This document shows positions 1-5,627 of a stretch of 5,627 nt of DNA, in pieces. Made by a program: the position numbers and the translations under genes. The number at the start of each line of letters is the position of its first letter. The first letter of the stretch is position 1. The stretch covers positions 1 through 5,627 of IMG/VR virus record IMGVR_UViG_2534681978_000011. One strand, 5' to 3'. Origin of the DNA: a virus. Taxonomy: Duplodnaviria > Heunggongvirae > Uroviricota > Caudoviricetes. A model generated the notes under the pieces. The model ran no database searches, had not been told where the DNA came from, and saw nothing but the letters and a program-made list of their open reading frames with translations.

Positions 1-23
1 TGCTGGTCAGCTATCAAGTACAG

Positions 24-131
24 TCATAGTCCTACGTACTTGAGCCTACGGAGTCCCTGAGACTGCCAGCGTTCAATCGTCCGCGGGTCCACGTTGAAAA
101 TTTCGGCAAGCCTCTTTTTATTAACCTTCAT
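24..131 (-). pseudogene. nohA: Small terminase subunit (Nu1/NohA-type), N-terminal fragment only; frame closes after 35 codons
   Basis: Minus-strand ATG at 131-129 gives [27 protein letters not shown], matching the N-terminus of NohA/NohB-type small terminases as I recall them (lambda Nu1 begins MEVNKKQLADIF). After about codon 27 the translation (RRLKYVGL, stop at 26-24) no longer resembles terminase. It sits directly downstream of the cos site, as in lambda. Confidence 0.5.
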
Positions 132-149
132 GAAAACAACCCATTATCA

Positions 150-380
150 AATACAAAGGCCCCGACATGAAAACGCCAGAAAAAGGCATTTTCGGACACT
201 TTCATGTCGGACCTTTACGGATGCAATATTAAAAAAAACAAAAAGTTATATTCGAGAAGTACCGACACGATTTTCCCTGAAAAATTTTCATAAATAGTGA
301 AAAACCGCGAGGTCGCCGCCCCGTAACCTGTCGGATCGCCGGAAAGGACCCACCAAAAATGATAATGATTGTCAAATACG
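150..380 (-). other. cos packaging site: cosB R-element inverted repeat (163-173 / 200-210), A/T-rich IHF-like tract (about 228-250), cosN cohesive-end sequence (310-321), cosQ-proximal segment (about 322-376)
   Basis: Minus strand reads ACGGGGCGGCGACCTCGCGGTTTTTCACTATTTATGAAAATTTTTC, near-identical to the lambda left end GGGCGGCGACCTCGCGGGTTTTCGCTATTTATGAAAATTTTCC. The upstream segment GGTCCTTTCCGGCGATCCGACAGGTTACG matches the lambda right end. A perfect 11-bp inverted repeat CCGACATGAAA / TTTCATGTCGG sits between cosN and the terminase ATG, like the lambda R2/R1 elements. Confidence 0.75.
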
Positions 381-446
381 TTTATCACACTGATATTCAG
401 AATCACTACTGAAAGACTCCCTTTGTGGTGCGCGAGGGATGCGCAT

Positions 447-473
447 AAAAAAACCACCAGCAAATGCCAGTGG
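447..473 (-). terminator. Rho-independent terminator downstream of the moron ORF
   Basis: Minus-strand RNA: 8-bp stem CCACUGGC / GCUGGUGG (two G-U pairs), 4-nt loop AUUU, then a run of 7 U (forward A-run 447-453). It lies 61 nt after the stop of the 534-938 ORF. Confidence 0.5.
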
Positions 474-533
474 CTAAAGATATTCATTGCGAATAACCAT
501 CACAAAACAACTTAACTCGTGAGGGTAGAAATT

Positions 534-938
534 TTACTCGAGGCCAAATTTCTTCTTTAAATAGGCCTTCGTTAACTCCAGCCCAACATCTTTGATTGTA
601 CTCAAAGGGGCATCGCTCATTGACTTTAATTTCTCAAAAACCGTAGGTTCATTTAATGCCTGGGCGAATTCTTGTCCCTGCGCAGATAGTCGCACGTCGG
701 TACCCATATCTAGCATATGGCCACAATGGCGCATGTAGCCCAGTTTAGTTATGTCATCCGTTATTAGATCTTTATTACTGATATAACCTTGCTCAATAAG
801 AAGTAGATAATGAAACATCCCTTCATTCGAGCAGATATCGTACCCCGCATTAGCTAAGTCTTTTGTAGATATAAAGGGAGTTTTCGCTTTCAAAAATACC
901 TCAAGCATCCCCTTCATGTATTCTAAATTTTTAACCAC
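534..938 (-). CDS. Hypothetical protein, 134 aa, AT-rich moron; possible winged-helix-like DNA-binding fold (inference only)
   Basis: ORF in the six-frame track. GTG start at 938-936 is preceded by a consensus Shine-Dalgarno (TAAGGAGGT, 5 nt spacing). GC content is visibly lower than the flanking lambda-like genes. Followed by its own terminator (447-473). Segment KTPFISTKDLAN...FHYLLLIEQGYIS resembles a wHTH recognition-helix pattern. No confident family assignment. Confidence 0.7.
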   Translation of the reverse strand: MVKNLEYMKGMLEVFLKAKTPFISTKDLANAGYDICSNEGMFHYLLLIEQGYISNKDLITDDITKLGYMRHCGHMLDMGTDVRLSAQGQEFAQALNEPTVFEKLKSMSDAPLSTIKDVGLELTKAYLKKKFGLE

Positions 939-1073
939 AAAAACCTCCTTAGGATAATTGGAGGTCTAGAATACCGTTTGCAAGCACGTTGATAAATCAT
1001 TATCACAGGCACTCAATGAATGCCTGCTGTAATTGCGTACGGTAATGAACGTAAAAAACCGCCCGAGGTATAT

Positions 1074-1298
1074 TTAGACATTAGATGGCGCTTTGTCAGT
1101 ATAGACCCGGTACGCCCTGACAAACATCCCGTTACATTCAGAGTCCGCCTTGATATACGCCAATTCGTAACCCCGATGCTTTAGCTCTTCACGAGCTCTT
1201 TTCTCTTCCTTAGCCATGAAGTTAAGATCTTTAATTTCTGAGTAGGTATATGTTCCCACTATAAAATCTCTGCCTGGCCGTCCATTTATCAGTTCCAT
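1074..1298 (-). CDS. Hypothetical phage protein, 74 aa
   Basis: The 96-aa track ORF begins at a TTG. The first in-frame ATG (1298-1296) has a strong SD (GGGAGGA, 5 nt upstream), giving MELINGRPGRDFIVGTYTYSEIKDL... No recognisable family. Confidence 0.55.
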   Translation of the reverse strand: MELINGRPGRDFIVGTYTYSEIKDLNFMAKEEKRAREELKHRGYELAYIKADSECNGMFVRAYRVYTDKAPSNV

Positions 1299-1391
1299 GT
1301 GTCCTCCCAAAAAGTTGGTAGTCAGAACATACCATGCTAAGCGAGGTGAAAGCACCTTTATCAAGCCCCCCGCAGATAGACTTTGTAATGG

Positions 1392-1679
1392 CTACTTCTT
1401 CAGAAATGATTCGATGAACTCACGCCGGGGATGACGATAGTTCAGAATATCTTCTGGCATCCTCATAAAGCGGTTGTTGCCGTCTTTGGCAGTAACGAAA
1501 CAGCAGTGAACTCCGCAGACATCCGTTTTGATCGTGTCGCCATACTCAAAAAGCAACTGCGCCATCTTCTCTTGCCATTCTTGCGGCATAGCCTCCATGA
1601 ATACTCTCGGCATCACGCAGAACGACGCATGCGTCAGGCCAAACCACAATTGCAGGTCTTTACGATATTCTTCATCCAT
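1392..1679 (-). CDS. Hypothetical phage protein, 95 aa, Cys-containing (C-x33-C-x3-CC)
   Basis: The 135-aa track ORF begins at a TTG and its N-terminal extension runs through a terminator-like hairpin. The in-frame ATG at 1679-1677 has an AAGG/AGGT SD 8-9 nt upstream, giving MDEEYRKDLQLWFGLTHASFCVMP... Function unknown. Confidence 0.55.
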   Translation of the reverse strand: MDEEYRKDLQLWFGLTHASFCVMPRVFMEAMPQEWQEKMAQLLFEYGDTIKTDVCGVHCCFVTAKDGNNRFMRMPEDILNYRHPRREFIESFLKK

Positions 1680-1696
1680 CGTCTTTACCTTTGTTG

Positions 1697-1723
1697 CAAT
1701 AAAAAGCCCCGCGAATGCGAGGC
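1697..1723 (-). terminator. Candidate rho-independent terminator or RNA hairpin between the spanin region and the 95-aa gene
   Basis: Minus-strand RNA: 7-bp stem GCCUCGC / GCGGGGC (one G-U), loop AUUC, followed by UUUUUAUU. Confidence 0.4.
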
Positions 1724-1758
1724 TAAATCCTGGTGTTTGTGATGAACTGGCTCTTATC

Positions 1759-1911
1759 TCAACGCAGCCCCTTACCGCGCGCCAGATGCTCAACTTCAAG
1801 CATCAGCAATGAGATGTTTAATCTGGATTCACTCCAGAAGTGATCACCACCCTGTCTACAGAGCCAGATGTGAAGGATGATAAGTAAAATTATCGCTATC
1901 ATCGAAGGCAT
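1759..1911 (-). CDS. Candidate small membrane protein, 50 aa (low confidence; may just be the out-of-frame tail of the frameshifted Rz region)
   Basis: ATG at 1911-1909 with AGGA 5 nt upstream. Product MPSMIAIILLIILHIWLCRQGG... has one hydrophobic helix-like segment. It overlaps the reconstructed Rz stop. Confidence 0.2.
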   Translation of the reverse strand: MPSMIAIILLIILHIWLCRQGGDHFWSESRLNISLLMLEVEHLARGKGLR

Positions 1912-2341
1912 TGCGTCCTGATGTATTCCTGAAGCGTTCTCAAACTGCGCGGTTATCCTGTCGATTCCACTTCGGAGACGGTAATAATTGAGTTCAGCAT
2001 CTGCTGTAAGTCTTGGGCTTTCTCCATCGCCCATGCTGCTGGCGTCCGGTCCGTTAGACTTTGCACAGGTGGCGGCGAACTTGCAGGCGCTTACGACCAG
2101 CAGAAACATCAGCACGGAGACTTTCGATAGTCGCATTAGCATCAGCAAGCTCCTTTGTATATCTGGCATCGAGTTCTGCTACGTCACGTTGACGCTTCTG
2201 CATGTCAGCGATGATGGATGTGGCTTTATCTCGCTGCTCTTTGTAGGCGATGGCGTTATCACGGTAATGATTAACAGCCCATAACAGGCAGACGATGATG
2301 CAGATAACCAGAGCGGAGATAATCGCGGTGACTCTGCTCAT
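1899..2341 (-). pseudogene. Rz: Rz inner-membrane spanin (i-spanin), disrupted by two +1 frameshifts in the sequence as given
   Basis: N-terminal 87 aa (frame of the ATG at 2341, [19 protein letters not shown]...AGRKRLQ) closely match lambda Rz, then stop at 2056-2054. The middle segment (ASSMGDGESPRLTADAELNYYRLRSGIDRITAQ, matching lambda ASGVDNAASPRLADTAERDYFTLRERLITMQ) is in the next frame. The C-terminus (LRTLQEYIRTQCLR-stop, matching lambda TQKYINEQCR-stop) is in the third frame, ending at 1901-1899. Removing one nt near 2081-2082 and one near 1942-1944 restores a 146-aa Rz. Confidence 0.75.
1953..2142 (-). pseudogene. Rz1: Rz1 outer-membrane lipoprotein spanin (o-spanin), embedded in Rz, disrupted by the first frameshift
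   Basis: ATG at 2142 with SD AAAGGAG. Signal peptide plus lipobox [20 protein letters not shown] (lambda: MLKLKMMLCVMMLPLVVVGC). The Pro-rich mature part ([19 protein letters not shown]...NSIITVSEVESTG, stop 1955-1953) is in the adjacent frame. The same 1-nt correction near 2081-2082 rejoins both Rz and Rz1. Confidence 0.7.
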
Positions 2342-2814
2342 ACCTCAATCTCTCTGACCGTTCCGCCAGCCTCTTTGAATTTTGCAATCAGGCTGTCAGC
2401 CTTATGCTCGAACTGACCATAACCAGCGCCCGGCAGTGAAGCCCAGATATTGCTGCAACGGTCGATAGCCTGACGGATATCACCGCGATCAATCATCGGT
2501 AAAGCGCCACGCTCTTTAATCTGCTGCAATGCCACAGCGTCCTGGCTTTTGGGAGAGAAATCTTTCAGGCCAAGCTGCTTACGATAGGCATCCCACCAAC
2601 GGGAAAGAAGCTGGTAACGTCCGGCGGCTGTTGATTTGAGTTTGGGGTTTAGCGTGACAAGTTTGCGAGGGTGATCAGAGTAATCAGTGAATAGCTCTCC
2701 GCCTACAATGACGTCATAACCATGATTTCTGGTTTTCTGTCGTCCGTTATCAGTCCCCTCTGACCACGCCAGCATATCGAGGAACGCCTTACGTTGATTA
2801 TTGATTTCCACCAT
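2338..2814 (-). CDS. R: Endolysin R (lambda-type lytic transglycosylase), 158 aa
   Basis: Protein [61 protein letters not shown]... is essentially identical to lambda R as recalled. ATGA overlap with the Rz start. Overlaps the S 3' end as in lambda. Confidence 0.95.
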
Positions 2815-3121
2815 CTTCTACTCCGGCTTTTTTAGCAGCGACGCGTTTGATAAGCGAACCAATCGAGTCAGTGCCGATGTAGCCGATGAACACGCTCGTT
2901 ATATAAGCGAGATTGCTACTTAGTCCGGCGAAGTCGAGAAGGTCACGAATGAACCAGGCGATAATGGCGCACATCGTTGCGTCGATTACTGTTTTTGTAA
3001 ACGCACCGCCATTATATCTGCCGCGAAGGTACGCCATTGCAAACGCAAGGATTGCCCCGATGCCTTGTTCCTTTGCCGCGAGAATGGCGGCTAACAGGTC
3101 ATGTTTTTCTGGCATCTTCAT
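2798..3121 (-). CDS. S: Holin S (lambda class I holin with dual-start motif MKMPEK: S107 antiholin / S105 holin), 107 aa
   Basis: Protein [64 protein letters not shown]... matches lambda S. The GGGGG SD and upstream leader match lambda. Confidence 0.95.
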
Positions 3122-3363
3122 GTCTTACCCCCAATAAGGGGATTTGCTCTATTTAATTAGGAATAAGGTCGATTACTGATAGAACAAATCCAGGCTACTG
3201 TGTTTAGTAATCAGATTTGTTCGTGACCGATATGCACGAGCAAAACGGCATGAGGTTGTTAGCGCAGCCTCTTGCCACCCGCTTTCACGAAGGTCATGTT
3301 TAGAAGGCCGCAGCGTAACTATCACTGATGAATTCAGGATAGCCAGTGGCTACGGCTCAGTTA
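3122..3363 (-). other. Lambda-type late leader upstream of S, including the S translational-control region
   Basis: Minus strand CTGAGCCGTAGCCACTGGCTATCCTGAATTCATCAGTGATAGTTACGCTGCGGCC...GATTACTAAACACAGTAGCCTGGATTTGTTCTATCAGTAATCGACCTTATTCCTAATTAAATAGAGCAAATCCCCTTATTGGGGGTAAGACATGAAGATG closely matches the lambda sequence preceding S as recalled. Confidence 0.7.
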
Positions 3364-3439
3364 TGGTGCTGGTTAACGGACTTGAACCGCTACCCATTCG
3401 CTTACAAGGCGACTGCTCTACCATTGGAGCTAAACCAGC
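3364..3439 (-). tRNA. tRNA-Thr (anticodon UGU), 76 nt including encoded CCA
   Basis: Manual cloverleaf on the minus strand: acceptor GCTGGTT/AACCAGC (7 bp perfect), D-arm GCTC-CAATGGTA-GAGC, anticodon loop CTTGTAA, T-arm AGCGG-TTCAAGT-CCGTT, discriminator A, CCA. Confidence 0.75.
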
Positions 3440-3444
3440 ATGTT

Positions 3445-3519
3445 TGGCGGGACAGCGTGGACTCGAACCACGATAAGAAGGTTAACAGCCTTCCGTAATG
3501 ACCTTTATACGACTGACCC
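3445..3519 (-). tRNA. tRNA-Asn-like (anticodon GUU), 75 nt including encoded CCA
   Basis: Manual cloverleaf on the minus strand: acceptor GGGTCAG/CTGTCCC (6 of 7 pairs, one U-U), D-loop AAAGGTCA, anticodon stem GAAGG/CCTTC with loop CTGTTAA (matches the E. coli tRNA-Asn loop), T-arm CGTGG-TTCGAGT-CCACG, discriminator G, CCA. Confidence 0.65.
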
Positions 3520-3564
3520 AAATAAAAAAGCCACCGTTGCAACTTAAGAGTCACTAACGGCAGC
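3520..3564 (-). terminator. Candidate tR'-like leader terminator immediately downstream of pR'
   Basis: Minus-strand RNA: 9-bp stem GCUGCCGUU / AACGGUGGC (two G-U pairs, so the hairpin is strand-specific), 17-nt loop, followed by UUUUUUAUUU. It ends 1 nt before the tRNA-Asn 5' end. Confidence 0.4.
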
Positions 3565-3574
3565 TTACCTGCTA

Positions 3575-3604
3575 ATTATGGCTAAATGGCTAATTGCATG
3601 TCAA
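3575..3604 (-). promoter_or_regulatory. Late promoter pR'-like sigma-70 promoter (-35 TTGACA, 18-nt spacer, -10 CATAAT), overlapping the last codons of Q
   Basis: Minus strand: TTGACA (3604-3599), 18-nt spacer, CATAAT (3580-3575). The -35 is a perfect consensus, the -10 is 5/6. Position immediately 3' of the Q gene is as expected for a lambdoid late promoter with its Q-utilisation site. Confidence 0.55.
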
Positions 3605-4100
3605 GGCTTTTAACAGCAACATGCTTAACTTTCTCAACACGTTTACGCATTTTGAAAGCATTTTGCATTGGCTGGTACAAAACAAATAACGACGCTTTCA
3701 GGATGTCGTCAATTTCGTTTCTACAGGTTGCCAGTGAAGGTTTTCTCCATCCCTCGCCACCACGTCCACACATCTTGCGTGGCTTTGCAGTCGCGTGATA
3801 GTAGGATGCAATTGCTCGCTTAGATGAACCATGAGCGTAGTAGCTGAGGAGGATGCCAAAGGCTTTCTTGTCAATGTACATGACGGAATCGACGACCTGA
3901 GAAATCAACATTCCATCATCATCATTACACATTGGCCTTGTCATAATTCTTCCCGGCTCTACGCTCTCCATGAACTTCGCTATTACGCTGCTCATGCGCT
4001 TTTCCAGACGACCTGAATAAACCCATGCGCCCCACAGTTCAAGCCAGCCATTCAGCCACTCATGCTGTTCTTTGGTGAGGTTTAGTTCTCTTATGCCCAT
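3582..4100 (-). CDS. Q: Late-gene antiterminator Q (phage-82 / DLP12 QuuD-like family, not lambda-Q type), 172 aa
   Basis: Position between ninI and the late promoter/lysis genes. Motifs [21 protein letters not shown] and [10 protein letters not shown] parallel QuuD-type Q proteins as recalled (LERWGAW, RPQCCDDDAMII, LLVDYYVVG). SD GGGAGAAGG before the ATG at 4100. Confidence 0.8.
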
Positions 4101-4762
4101 GCGCCTTCTCCCTGTACCTGAATCAATGTGAGGTTTCCGCAGAACACTGCTCCGGTATCGATATACATTTGGTTGGCAAATTTAAGTGGTTTCACTGCTG
4201 GCGTATGACCAAAGATGAACGTGTCCGCGCCTTTGATTTCTTTCACGATCCCGTCTTGTGAGTTGCTGATTCGTTCGCGGTTCCAGATTACCTGCTGATG
4301 ATCAACTGGCTTTCCAAACTCGTATTCGTCACAAGGATAATCGGCGTGGCAGATGACATATTTTTTACCTTCGCTCACCAGTTCGATGATTAACGGAAGT
4401 TCATCTGCTTTATGAGCAAGAGCTTTAGCCAGAATTTCTTTGTCGTAATCGAGATTAAAGAACCAGCCACCGCCATTAAGCATCCAGTGATTGACGTTTC
4501 CGCGCTCTGATAAGCCATCAATCATCATTTGCTCATGGTTTCCACGTACAGCTCGGAACCAGGGGAATGTGATTAATTCCAGACATTCGACGTTCTCTGT
4601 ACCGCGATCGACCAAATCGCCAACCGAGATAAGCAGGTCTTTTTTGGTGTCGAATCCTATCGTCTCCAGTTTTTTCATCAGGTTCGTGTAGCATCCGTGC
4701 AGATCGCCAACTACCCAAATATTTCGGTATTTGCTGCCATCAATTTTTTCGTAATAGCGCAT
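4091..4762 (-). CDS. ninI: Ser/Thr protein phosphatase (lambda PPase, NinI / ORF221 homologue), 223 aa
   Basis: From the ATG at 4762 (SD GGAGTGAAAGAG) the protein [29 protein letters not shown]...GNHE... matches lambda phosphatase with the metallophosphatase motifs GDLHG, GDLVDRG and GNHE. The 248-aa track ORF has a 25-codon upstream extension overlapping ninH. Confidence 0.9.
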
Positions 4763-4946
4763 CTCTTTCACTCCATCCGCGATGAACCATGAGAACGTCG
4801 TTGACGATGGCGTGCATTTTCCCGTCTTTATCATCAACGTATTTTCTGACCGTACCGCGACTACATTTCAGTCTGCGTGCTACTTCTGTCTGGTTTCCGT
4901 ATGCTTCAACGAGCATGTCTGGAATGGTTTTTACTGAGAACGTCAT
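4740..4946 (-). CDS. ninH: NinH, 68 aa
   Basis: [68 protein letters not shown] matches lambda NinH. ATGA start/stop overlap with ninG. Confidence 0.9.
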
Positions 4947-5554
4947 GCGGCCTCACTTCTGCTATTTCGCAGGTCTTTGAGTTTCTGCTGATACTCCGCC
5001 TTGATGGCCCTGCACTCTTCGACAGTCCAGCGATGGCGGTTATGGTTTGATTCGATTTCGTCTACTGCTTCCTGCCCGATGCGATTAATCAGTTCGACGC
5101 GATACGGAACGAGATTTCCGCTTTTGTGCTGGTTGCACACCACGCATTGCTTGTGAATATTGCGTTCATCAAATCGGAGTTGAGGTGCCGCAGCAGTTGT
5201 CCGGTAATGTCCGGCATCCCACTGAGCAGACGTGAGCGTTCCGCACGAGATACATGGTAAGTCGCGGTCTCTTTCTCTGATGAAGGCGTTTACGGCTTGT
5301 TGGGCTTGTTTAATCCAGTAACTGCGGGGCTTTAAGGCGAGTTTTCGAATCTTAAGTTTATCTTTCTGTTTCTGCTCCTCTCGTCGTCGTTTCTTCTCTG
5401 CTGCTTTTTCCGCTTTTTCGCGTTCTTTGCTTCGTCGTTCGAGTGCTATCTTGGTTCCACACTCTGGAGAGCACCACCACTGATTAGCGAATGCAGGGTG
5501 AAACCATTCCCGACATTCATCGTTTTTACATCGTCTTCGCGCTGGTTTAGCCAT
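4943..5554 (-). CDS. ninG: NinG (Rap recombination-associated structure-specific endonuclease), 203 aa
   Basis: [50 protein letters not shown]... matches lambda NinG across its length. SD GAGGAAG upstream of the ATG at 5554. Confidence 0.9.
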
Positions 5555-5627
5555 CGTCTTCTTCCTCGTACATTGAGCTATTCGGATCGCTCATCAGTTC
5601 TGCGCAGCAGTGCTCACACACGTGAAC
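5547..5627 (-). CDS. ninF: NinF, 3' partial (N-terminus lies beyond the window end)
   Basis: Minus-strand translation [26 protein letters not shown]-stop matches the lambda NinF C-terminus. Its stop overlaps the ninG start. Confidence 0.7.

Follow-up and report, generated by a model that had tools for sequence, protein, structure and literature searches.

The window, by which we mean the whole stretch of 5,627 nt that was analysed (positions 1 to 5,627 of the IMG/VR virus record IMGVR_UViG_2534681978_000011), is the right end of a lambdoid prophage. It is given in reverse-complemented form, with every gene on the minus strand, and the gene order is lysis genes, extra genes, cos and then a Nu1 gene of the phage 21 type. 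The following genes and sites were placed:

Minus strand: NinG, NinH and phosphatase genes
3582-4100, minus strand: Q
3364-3519, minus strand: tRNA-Asn and tRNA-Thr
2054-3121, minus strand: holin, lysozyme and Rz
1392-1799, minus strand: 135-aa ORF
1074-1364, minus strand: 96-aa ORF
534-938, minus strand: 134-aa moron gene, phrog_585 (function unknown), with a predicted winged-helix fold
445-475, minus strand: intrinsic terminator of the 134-aa cassette, stem 475-452 followed by a T run (terminator scan)
345-351, minus strand: cosQ (GGGTCCT on the phage strand), identical to the annotated cosQ of phage 21 (OL657228.1) and to lambda 48473-48479
310-321, minus strand: 12-nt cohesive end of cosN, GGGCGGCGACCT on the phage strand, where the ends of the phage 21 record align
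131, minus strand: start of the phage-21-type small terminase gene

Base 1 of phage 21 falls on window position 321 and its last base on 322, placing the mature genome end between these two positions. Identity to cos and gene 1 of phage 21 amounts to 99% over positions 50-351. E. coli FORC_069 is 100% identical over 300-1400, and 376-1073 recurs with 100% identity in E. coli isolates that include outbreak strains of O104:H4. Family searches with the 134-, 96- and 135-aa ORFs gave no match in Pfam, NCBIfam or PADLOC, and PHROGs gave families of unknown function only; a PDB sequence search returned no match, and the Rfam scan of 300-1200 yielded matches at chance level only. As expected of a moron, the 134-aa gene has a promoter-like element upstream (a putative promoter), an intrinsic terminator (475-445) downstream, and is absent from close relatives.

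According to the original prediction, this gene is flanked by inverted copies of a 16-17-bp motif, referred to here as copy 1 (next to cosQ) and copy 2 (upstream of the moron), which were proposed to mark the recombination boundaries of the moron insertion or to be a shared binding site for a dimeric regulator. Both sequences were confirmed at the stated positions: 360-375 reads TGATAATGATTGTCAA and 989-1005 reads TTGATAAATCATTATCA. Lambda carries GTGATAATGATTATCATC at the corresponding cosQ-proximal place, as had been noted, with copy 1 lying in a block common to lambda. Equally, 990-1005 is a perfect palindrome (TGATAA-N4-TTATCA), and its placement upstream of the moron start was confirmed, at a distance of 52-68 nt from the GTG at 938. 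An exact inverted match extends over 11 nt (360-370 versus 995-1005); over the full 16-17 bp, the copies match only if one mismatch and an indel of 1 nt are allowed. Without gaps and with up to three mismatches permitted, a search recovered only the query itself. The two architectures also differ: copy 1 is a 7-1-7 element (equivalent to 6-N3-6) of the form TGATAAT-G-ATTGTCA with one mismatch and its core at 360-374, copy 2 a 6-N4-6 element of the form TGATAA-ATCA-TTATCA, and pattern searches with 7-1-7 and 6-N4-6 each recovered their own copy only.

Over the whole window, four exact inverted 11-mer pairs were observed versus 4.6 expected from dinucleotide shuffles; within 1-1500 there were two versus 0.4 expected, a number reached by 10% of the shuffles. 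Regarded simply as a generic repeat, the pair does not stand out. When the query was fixed as copy 1, an equally good gapped match occurred in 1% of shuffles when the rest of the window was considered, and in 0.3% for 400-1500. We are not comfortable with pure coincidence of the pair, because a fixed-query match of this quality appeared in only 1% of shuffles. Inspection of both copies by eye for the IHF consensus WATCAANNNNTTR gave no good match, and a resemblance of TTATCACAG to a DnaA box or lambda operator was judged coincidental.

Comparison of genomes defined the segment that varies at this locus:

375-1391, minus strand: variably present two-gene unit (96-aa ORF plus 134-aa cassette), from genome presence/absence comparison

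Positions 1030-1400 are held by 36 E. coli genomes, and 36 hold at least 80% of 376-1073; of 5,426 E. coli genomes, 36 to 49 carry the 134-aa cassette. In all loci inspected (L005, L008 and L009), the cassette was accompanied by the 96-aa ORF. The unit has three different upstream neighbours and adjoins a Nu1 gene of either the lambda or the phage 21 type, and homology among the E. coli loci bearing it stops at 1391. DNA common to the Klebsiella-type loci reaches from the terminator T run (~445) to a hairpin ending at 1036, with the homology of L019 and L024 stopping just past the T run. Homologues of the 134-aa protein (50-96% identity) are encoded in Citrobacter, Klebsiella, Pectobacterium and metagenomes, always between lysis and terminase genes.

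If the copies were scars or substrates of the recombination that inserted the moron, acting as terminal inverted repeats or microhomology, one would expect them at junctions, and a comparison with moron-less prophages gave some encouragement here: BLAST homology extends precisely to where the 7-1-7 core of copy 1 ends on its outer side (374/375; weak gapped similarity may reach ~390), and copy 2 straddles a second mosaic junction at 997/998. These junctions, however, belong to different nested modules. Since the variable unit spans 375-1391 and the cassette ~445-1036, with copy 2 internal to both, the copies are not the two ends of one insertion. The unit ends at 1391 and not at 1005, and the cassette runs past copy 2 to 1036, its other end at ~445 falling 70 nt short of copy 1. 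Moreover, the Klebsiella-type phage cassettes (L019, L020 and L024) have neither a partner copy nor a Fur-like partner downstream, and no transposase or integrase is located nearby. Also at odds with an insertion boundary is the occurrence of copy 1-type sites alone, without the cassette, in thousands of prophages; besides lambda, Qin, DLP12 and phage 21, ~73% of complete E. coli genomes have them. Part of 300-1400 is matched by 3,959 of 5,426 complete E. coli genomes, and in most rows sampled this match corresponds to 300-374, the cosN-cosQ-Fur-box segment. Judged from this distribution, copy 1 is a conserved, ancient part of cos regions devoid of the cassette and long predates the insert. 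Recombination scars, a reading already largely refuted by these genome comparisons, therefore seem a most improbable origin of the pair, and a short AT-rich inverted match flanking a moron should not be taken for an insertion scar in annotation.

Copy 1 is better understood as a binding site for the ferric uptake regulator Fur. The predicted sites at the cos side are:

358-376, no strand assigned: copy 1, Fur box (19-mer AATGATAATGATTGTCAAA; 7-1-7 core 360-374, TGATAAT-G-ATTGTCA), 20.2 bits, in the same position relative to cosQ as in Qin, lambda, DLP12 and phage 21
389-407, no strand assigned: second predicted Fur site ACTGATATTCAGAATCACT, 13.8 bits, 7-1-7 core with three mismatches

Scores were obtained with a symmetric 19-bp matrix (9-1-9, no gaps allowed) built from K-12 sites that were taken by their coordinates, leaving out nohA and nohB:

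Training sites (only 14): 20.2-28.6 bits
nohA (Qin; sequence same as lambda): 22.1 bits
nohB (DLP12): 24.9 bits
Phage 21 site: 23.2 bits
Window 358-376 (copy 1): 20.2 bits

On this matrix of 14 sites, the score of copy 1 lies inside the range of validated sites, and in a K-12 background of 142 kb only 0.007% of positions reach it. Copy 1 agrees with the Fur 7-1-7 core TGATAATnATTATCA at 13 of 14 core positions and with correct spacing. It is, furthermore, the orthologue of sites bound by Fur according to gel shift (nohA), Fur titration (nohB) and ChIP-exo (CFT073), all of them beside cosQ; the core of copy 1 lies 8 bp from cosQ, and the orthologous sites keep a distance of 4-8 bp despite differing sequences. 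In the study of Chen et al. (2007, PMC2189734), the Fur clusters upstream of nohB (25.3 bits, based on Fur titration) and nohA (22.3 bits, with confirmation from a gel shift) rank among the strongest of E. coli K-12; as cited there, the nohA and nohB Fur boxes go back to Stojiljkovic 1994 and Vassinova & Kozyrev 2000. After conversion, the coordinates given by Chen et al. fall exactly on palindromes 6 bp from cosQ, namely TGATAATTATTATCA in DLP12 and TGATAATGATTATCA in Qin, the latter being identical to lambda 48452-48466. In CFT073, Gao et al. (2023, supplement of PMC10164565) reported the Fur ChIP-exo peak P53 next to the nohD unit, which we mapped onto AGTGATAATTATTCTCGTT beside cosQ of a prophage with a 21-type terminase. 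This conservation points to selection on the site, because the scores stay high though the sequences diverge. In phage 4A7, cos is shared up to 351 and the Fur site is not there.

The proposed site for a dimeric regulator thus stood for copy 1, with host Fur as the regulator and a site already known from nohA and nohB. Binding of Fur to this particular variant of the site is what we infer from the orthologous sites. What did not hold is that copy 1 shares this role with copy 2 as one operator: the half-site spacing differs by 1 bp, and the Fur matrix gives 4.0 bits for copy 2 as compared to 20.2 bits for copy 1. An overlapping predicted site shifted by 6 bp (352-370, 9.4 bits) accompanies copy 1, and the site at 389-407 falls in 70 nt that only the cos-adjacent version of the unit has; together, 358-376, 389-407 and 352-370 may form a cluster, with the second predicted site possibly turning the cos-side operator into such an arrangement. 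A candidate promoter of sigma-70-like appearance (TTGTCA-17-GATATT, plus strand, 369-397) overlaps both 358-376 and 389-407. For the genes ylcI, ynfO and nohD near the K-12 sites, the RNA-seq data of Gao et al. (PMC10164565) list changes only in W3110, at counts below ~11 and as decreases in the fur mutant; we did not accept these as evidence of regulation, given the very low counts and a sign unfit for simple repression.

Copy 2 turned out to be a composite of two neighbouring modules, and the features overlapping here are:

998-1036, minus strand: 39-nt hairpin GCAATTACAG-CAGGCATTCATTGAGTGCCTG-TGATAATG, ending in the extended -10-like TGTGATAAT (999-1007), from sequence matches and fold
989-1005, no strand assigned: copy 2, composite palindrome TGATAA-N4-TTATCA (990-1005), with the hairpin element contributing 998-1005 and the cassette 989-997
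968-995, minus strand: alternative promoter-like pair of TTATCA (990-995), 16 nt and TATTCT (968-973), hexamers and spacing kept in the window, L019 and L024

As had been noticed originally, copy 2 overlaps the extended -10-like sequence TGTGATAAT on the minus strand. Its half TGATAATG (998-1005) is the 3' arm of the 39-nt hairpin, and the 134-aa gene cassette begins with ATTTATCAA (989-997); 90 unrelated downstream sequences that follow TGATAATG reveal the junction at 997/998. The perfect palindrome is specific to the cassette version of the window, the arms in homologues being TAATAA...TTATCA and TGATGA...TTATCC. The palindrome of copy 2 would be an accident of the hairpin/cassette junction. 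The hairpin 3' arm and the cassette start together would form the promoter region of the cassette, readable as an extended -10 (TGTGATAAT) or as TTATCA-16-TATTCT. The extended -10 (TGTRATRAT) is kept in three diverged cassettes. The spacer of the TTATCA/TTTATC-16-TATTCT pair varies among the window, L019 and L024, and we regard this pair as a putative alternative promoter. Viewing copy 1 in turn as a decayed hairpin element was rejected, as its arm order is reversed and the TGATAATG octamer is absent in DLP12 and phage 21.

An alternative explanation of the resemblance would be that both copies are working Fur operators, Fur repressing the moron promoter at copy 2 under iron-replete conditions and binding the cos-side cluster as well. 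Fur boxes commonly overlap -10 elements, and copy 2 does have perfect half-sites (TGATAAT and TTATCA) over the predicted -10 and start region; copy 1 is in any case a strong predicted Fur site. Against this, the spacing of copy 2 is one base too long, its 4.0 bits are reached about once per kb in the K-12 background, and a search with the Fur 7-1-7 pattern did not recover it with up to three mismatches. It has no orthologue among sites shown to bind Fur, and the additional site, offset by 6 bp, that overlaps validated ones (Chen et al. 2007, PMC2189734) is missing from it. In the corresponding place, homologous cassettes carry TGTAATAATGATTTATCAC (-1.3 bits) and TGTGATGATGCTTTATCCT (-5.4 bits), and the half TGATAATG occurs in more than 100 unrelated contexts without a second half-site. 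We consider Fur control of copy 2 unlikely on these grounds. If it did apply, the 134-aa gene would be an iron-regulated lysogenic-conversion gene, like stx1 in Stx1 phages.

The palindrome could also serve the moron product itself: with its predicted winged-helix fold, the 134-aa protein might act as a dimeric autoregulator on the 6-N4-6 palindrome and perhaps, more weakly, on the cos-side motif. The protein is net acidic, however, and helix 3 (NEGMFHYLLLIEQ), the usual position of a recognition helix, is devoid of basic residues. Homologues of 83-89% identity have nearly the same helix 3, yet their palindrome arms decay; more distant homologues have no comparable palindrome, and one of them has no separate promoter region. 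With the deviating spacing of copy 1 and no match of the protein to a sequence family of known function, autoregulation appears more doubtful still than Fur repression at copy 2, although somewhat ahead of a recombination origin.

Our preferred account, probable when taken as a whole, is that copy 1 is a Fur operator of lambda-like phages, situated outside cosQ at the very tip of the packaged genome on its right side, and that copy 2 is a coincidental promoter/hairpin look-alike; the two copies would be unrelated features that resemble each other since both are AT-rich GATAAT-type sequences. Host Fur-Fe2+ dimers would be expected to bind the 7-1-7 inverted repeat of copy 1.

The hairpin contributing to copy 2 has a much wider distribution than the cassette it precedes here. 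Its conserved unit of ~39 nt, GGCATTACAG-CAGGCATTCAyTGAGTGCCTG-TGATAATG, was found in more than 120 viral contigs, and an exact 29-mer search detected it in 30 species-representative genomes across the Enterobacterales. Conservation stops sharply on both sides: 119 instances of the 29-nt core are flanked by 91 different upstream 40-mers and 90 different downstream 30-mers. The consensus is predicted to fold into one long hairpin (-25.4 kcal/mol, z -6.1). Two compensatory arm variants exist (CATCATCA...TGATGATG and CATTT...AAATG), evidence of covariation that is limited by the biased sample resulting from collection with a fixed core pattern. In 75 of 93 instances, the 60 nt preceding the hairpin contain the end of an ORF, and mostly the hairpin follows directly after the stop codon. 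In 69 of the 93, an ORF led by a Shine-Dalgarno sequence begins on the same strand no more than 200 nt downstream (typically at a distance of 15-90 nt), as compared to 7 of 93 in reverse orientation. One or two cargo genes are enclosed by two copies in direct orientation at ~11 loci. In many Enterobacterales prophages, the element lies between the lysis and packaging genes, right behind stop codons and a short way ahead of the following gene. Our literature search found no paper quoting the hairpin sequence.

Beyond this account, we tentatively put forward a combined proposal, which we rate as possible rather than likely and which has two parts that are to be taken together: a high-affinity Fur site would be a conserved component of lambdoid cos, 4-8 bp from cosQ, and may couple a cos step to the iron status of the host, and the 39-nt hairpin ending in TGTGATAATG may be an undescribed PeSL-like element of punctuation or shuffling that would mark cargo swaps between the lysis and packaging genes of temperate Enterobacterales phages. 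Despite sequence differences, lambda, Qin, DLP12, phage 21 and this O104:H4-type prophage all retain a Fur box beside cosQ; in the open-access literature we found no paper linking Fur with cosQ or cosN. Candidate cos steps for a coupling to Fur are a promoter directed leftward, transcription that runs across cos, or the way in which terminase reaches cosQ. A function of the hairpin as a promoter-terminator or recombination module, if borne out, would account for cargo exchange at this hotspot in prophages of pathogens.

The closest known counterparts of copy 1 are the K-12 nohA and nohB sites and the CFT073 site, with which it shares the location 4-8 bp outside cosQ and ~230 nt upstream of a Nu1-type gene, the 7-1-7 architecture, a similar matrix score and the conserved cosN-cosQ block. 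It differs in its right half-site (ATTGTCA instead of ATTATCA) and in a spacer of 8 rather than 6 bp to cosQ; in addition, the window has the predicted second site at 389-407, and the moron unit takes the place of a neighbour gene of the ylcI/ynfO type. Copy 2 invites comparison with Stx1-converting phages, in which the stx1 promoter is Fur-repressed. Both concern an accessory gene of the late phage region with a Fur-type sequence over the -10, but the spacing of copy 2 is non-canonical, its score is low, and homologous cassettes do not preserve it. As for the 134-aa gene, morons were reportedly described in the lambdoid phages HK97 and HK022 by Juhala and colleagues in 2000. The gene resembles lambdoid morons in having its own promoter-like sequence and intrinsic terminator, in its location between lysis and packaging genes and in being missing from close relatives. 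In contrast to them, it travels in E. coli with the 96-aa ORF as a 1-kb unit and is preceded by a conserved hairpin instead of a simple promoter.

For the hairpin, the closest analogue is the PeSL cassette, a combination of promoter and stem-loop in T4-type phages (Arbiol et al. 2010, PMC2839356; Comeau et al. 2014, PMC4122927). The likeness would consist in a short conserved stem-loop with a promoter-like motif between small variable genes, sometimes with a direct copy at either end of a cargo gene, which by analogy would fit a role in gene shuffling. The hairpin differs from PeSL cassettes in its sequence, in its occurrence in temperate Enterobacterales prophages rather than T4-type phages, and in its number of one or two copies per genome instead of dozens.

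The gene next to the cos region belongs to a family without known function (phrog_585), and its product is predicted with high confidence to form a winged helix in its N-terminal part, with further helices towards the C-terminus. Homologues occur in prophages of Escherichia, Citrobacter, Klebsiella and Pectobacterium, where they always lie in the interval between the lysis and terminase genes.

534-938, minus strand: 134-aa moron gene
998-1036, minus strand: 39-nt hairpin element, GGCATTACAG-CAGGCATTCAyTGAGTGCCTG-TGATAATG

In E. coli CT282, the 134-aa gene has an IS100 copy inserted directly 5' of its start codon (L005 3064-3065, corresponding to window 939), which separates the gene from its own putative promoter and the hairpin. 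The RefSeq annotation of this gene is a shorter ORF of 124 aa.

The hairpin element recurs with sharp edges of conservation in the comparison loci L003, L004, L019, L024, L025-L144 and L147-L176. In prophages throughout the Enterobacterales it is placed directly 3' of stop codons, ahead of the following gene, and in some loci two copies in direct orientation flank cargo genes. None of the papers in the literature collection searched quotes its sequence.

Further features of the window are the following:

1392-1799, minus strand: 135-aa ORF matching phrog_3527
3364-3519, minus strand: tRNA-Thr(UGU) and tRNA-Asn(GUU), between Q and the holin gene
162-210: inverted repeat of 22 nt with 82% complementarity and a gap of 5 nt, located between cosN and the start of the small terminase gene

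The match of the 135-aa ORF is limited to the C-terminal half of the family profile (positions 121-230 of 233), and the ORF may have arisen by truncation or gene fusion; homology with phage HF4s starts at window 1358. The Q-holin interval is the site of tRNAs and stx in Stx phages; no toxin gene was found at the tRNA locus of the window. The inverted repeat lies inside a stretch 99% identical to cosB of phage 21 and probably belongs to the terminase/IHF binding array of that phage.

In 21-type cos regions, a diverged Fur box still scores 23.2 bits and coincides in CFT073 with a ChIP-exo peak (Fur peak P53; Gao et al. 2023, PMC10164565).

L145 (CFT073 prophage) 795-813, also in L001 (phage 21): diverged Fur box, GAGAATAATTATCAC

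Upstream of this box, phage 21 and the L145 prophage encode a TonB C-terminal-domain protein, which further ties this corner of the genome to iron uptake.

Within the window, a promoter is predicted antisense to the moron, with no convincing gene downstream of it.

369-397, plus strand: predicted sigma-70-like promoter, TTGTCA (369-374), 17-nt spacing, GATATT (392-397)

Its -35 element lies within the 20.2-bit and its -10 element within the 13.8-bit predicted Fur site, so that window 369-407 matches the classic layout of Fur-repressed promoters.
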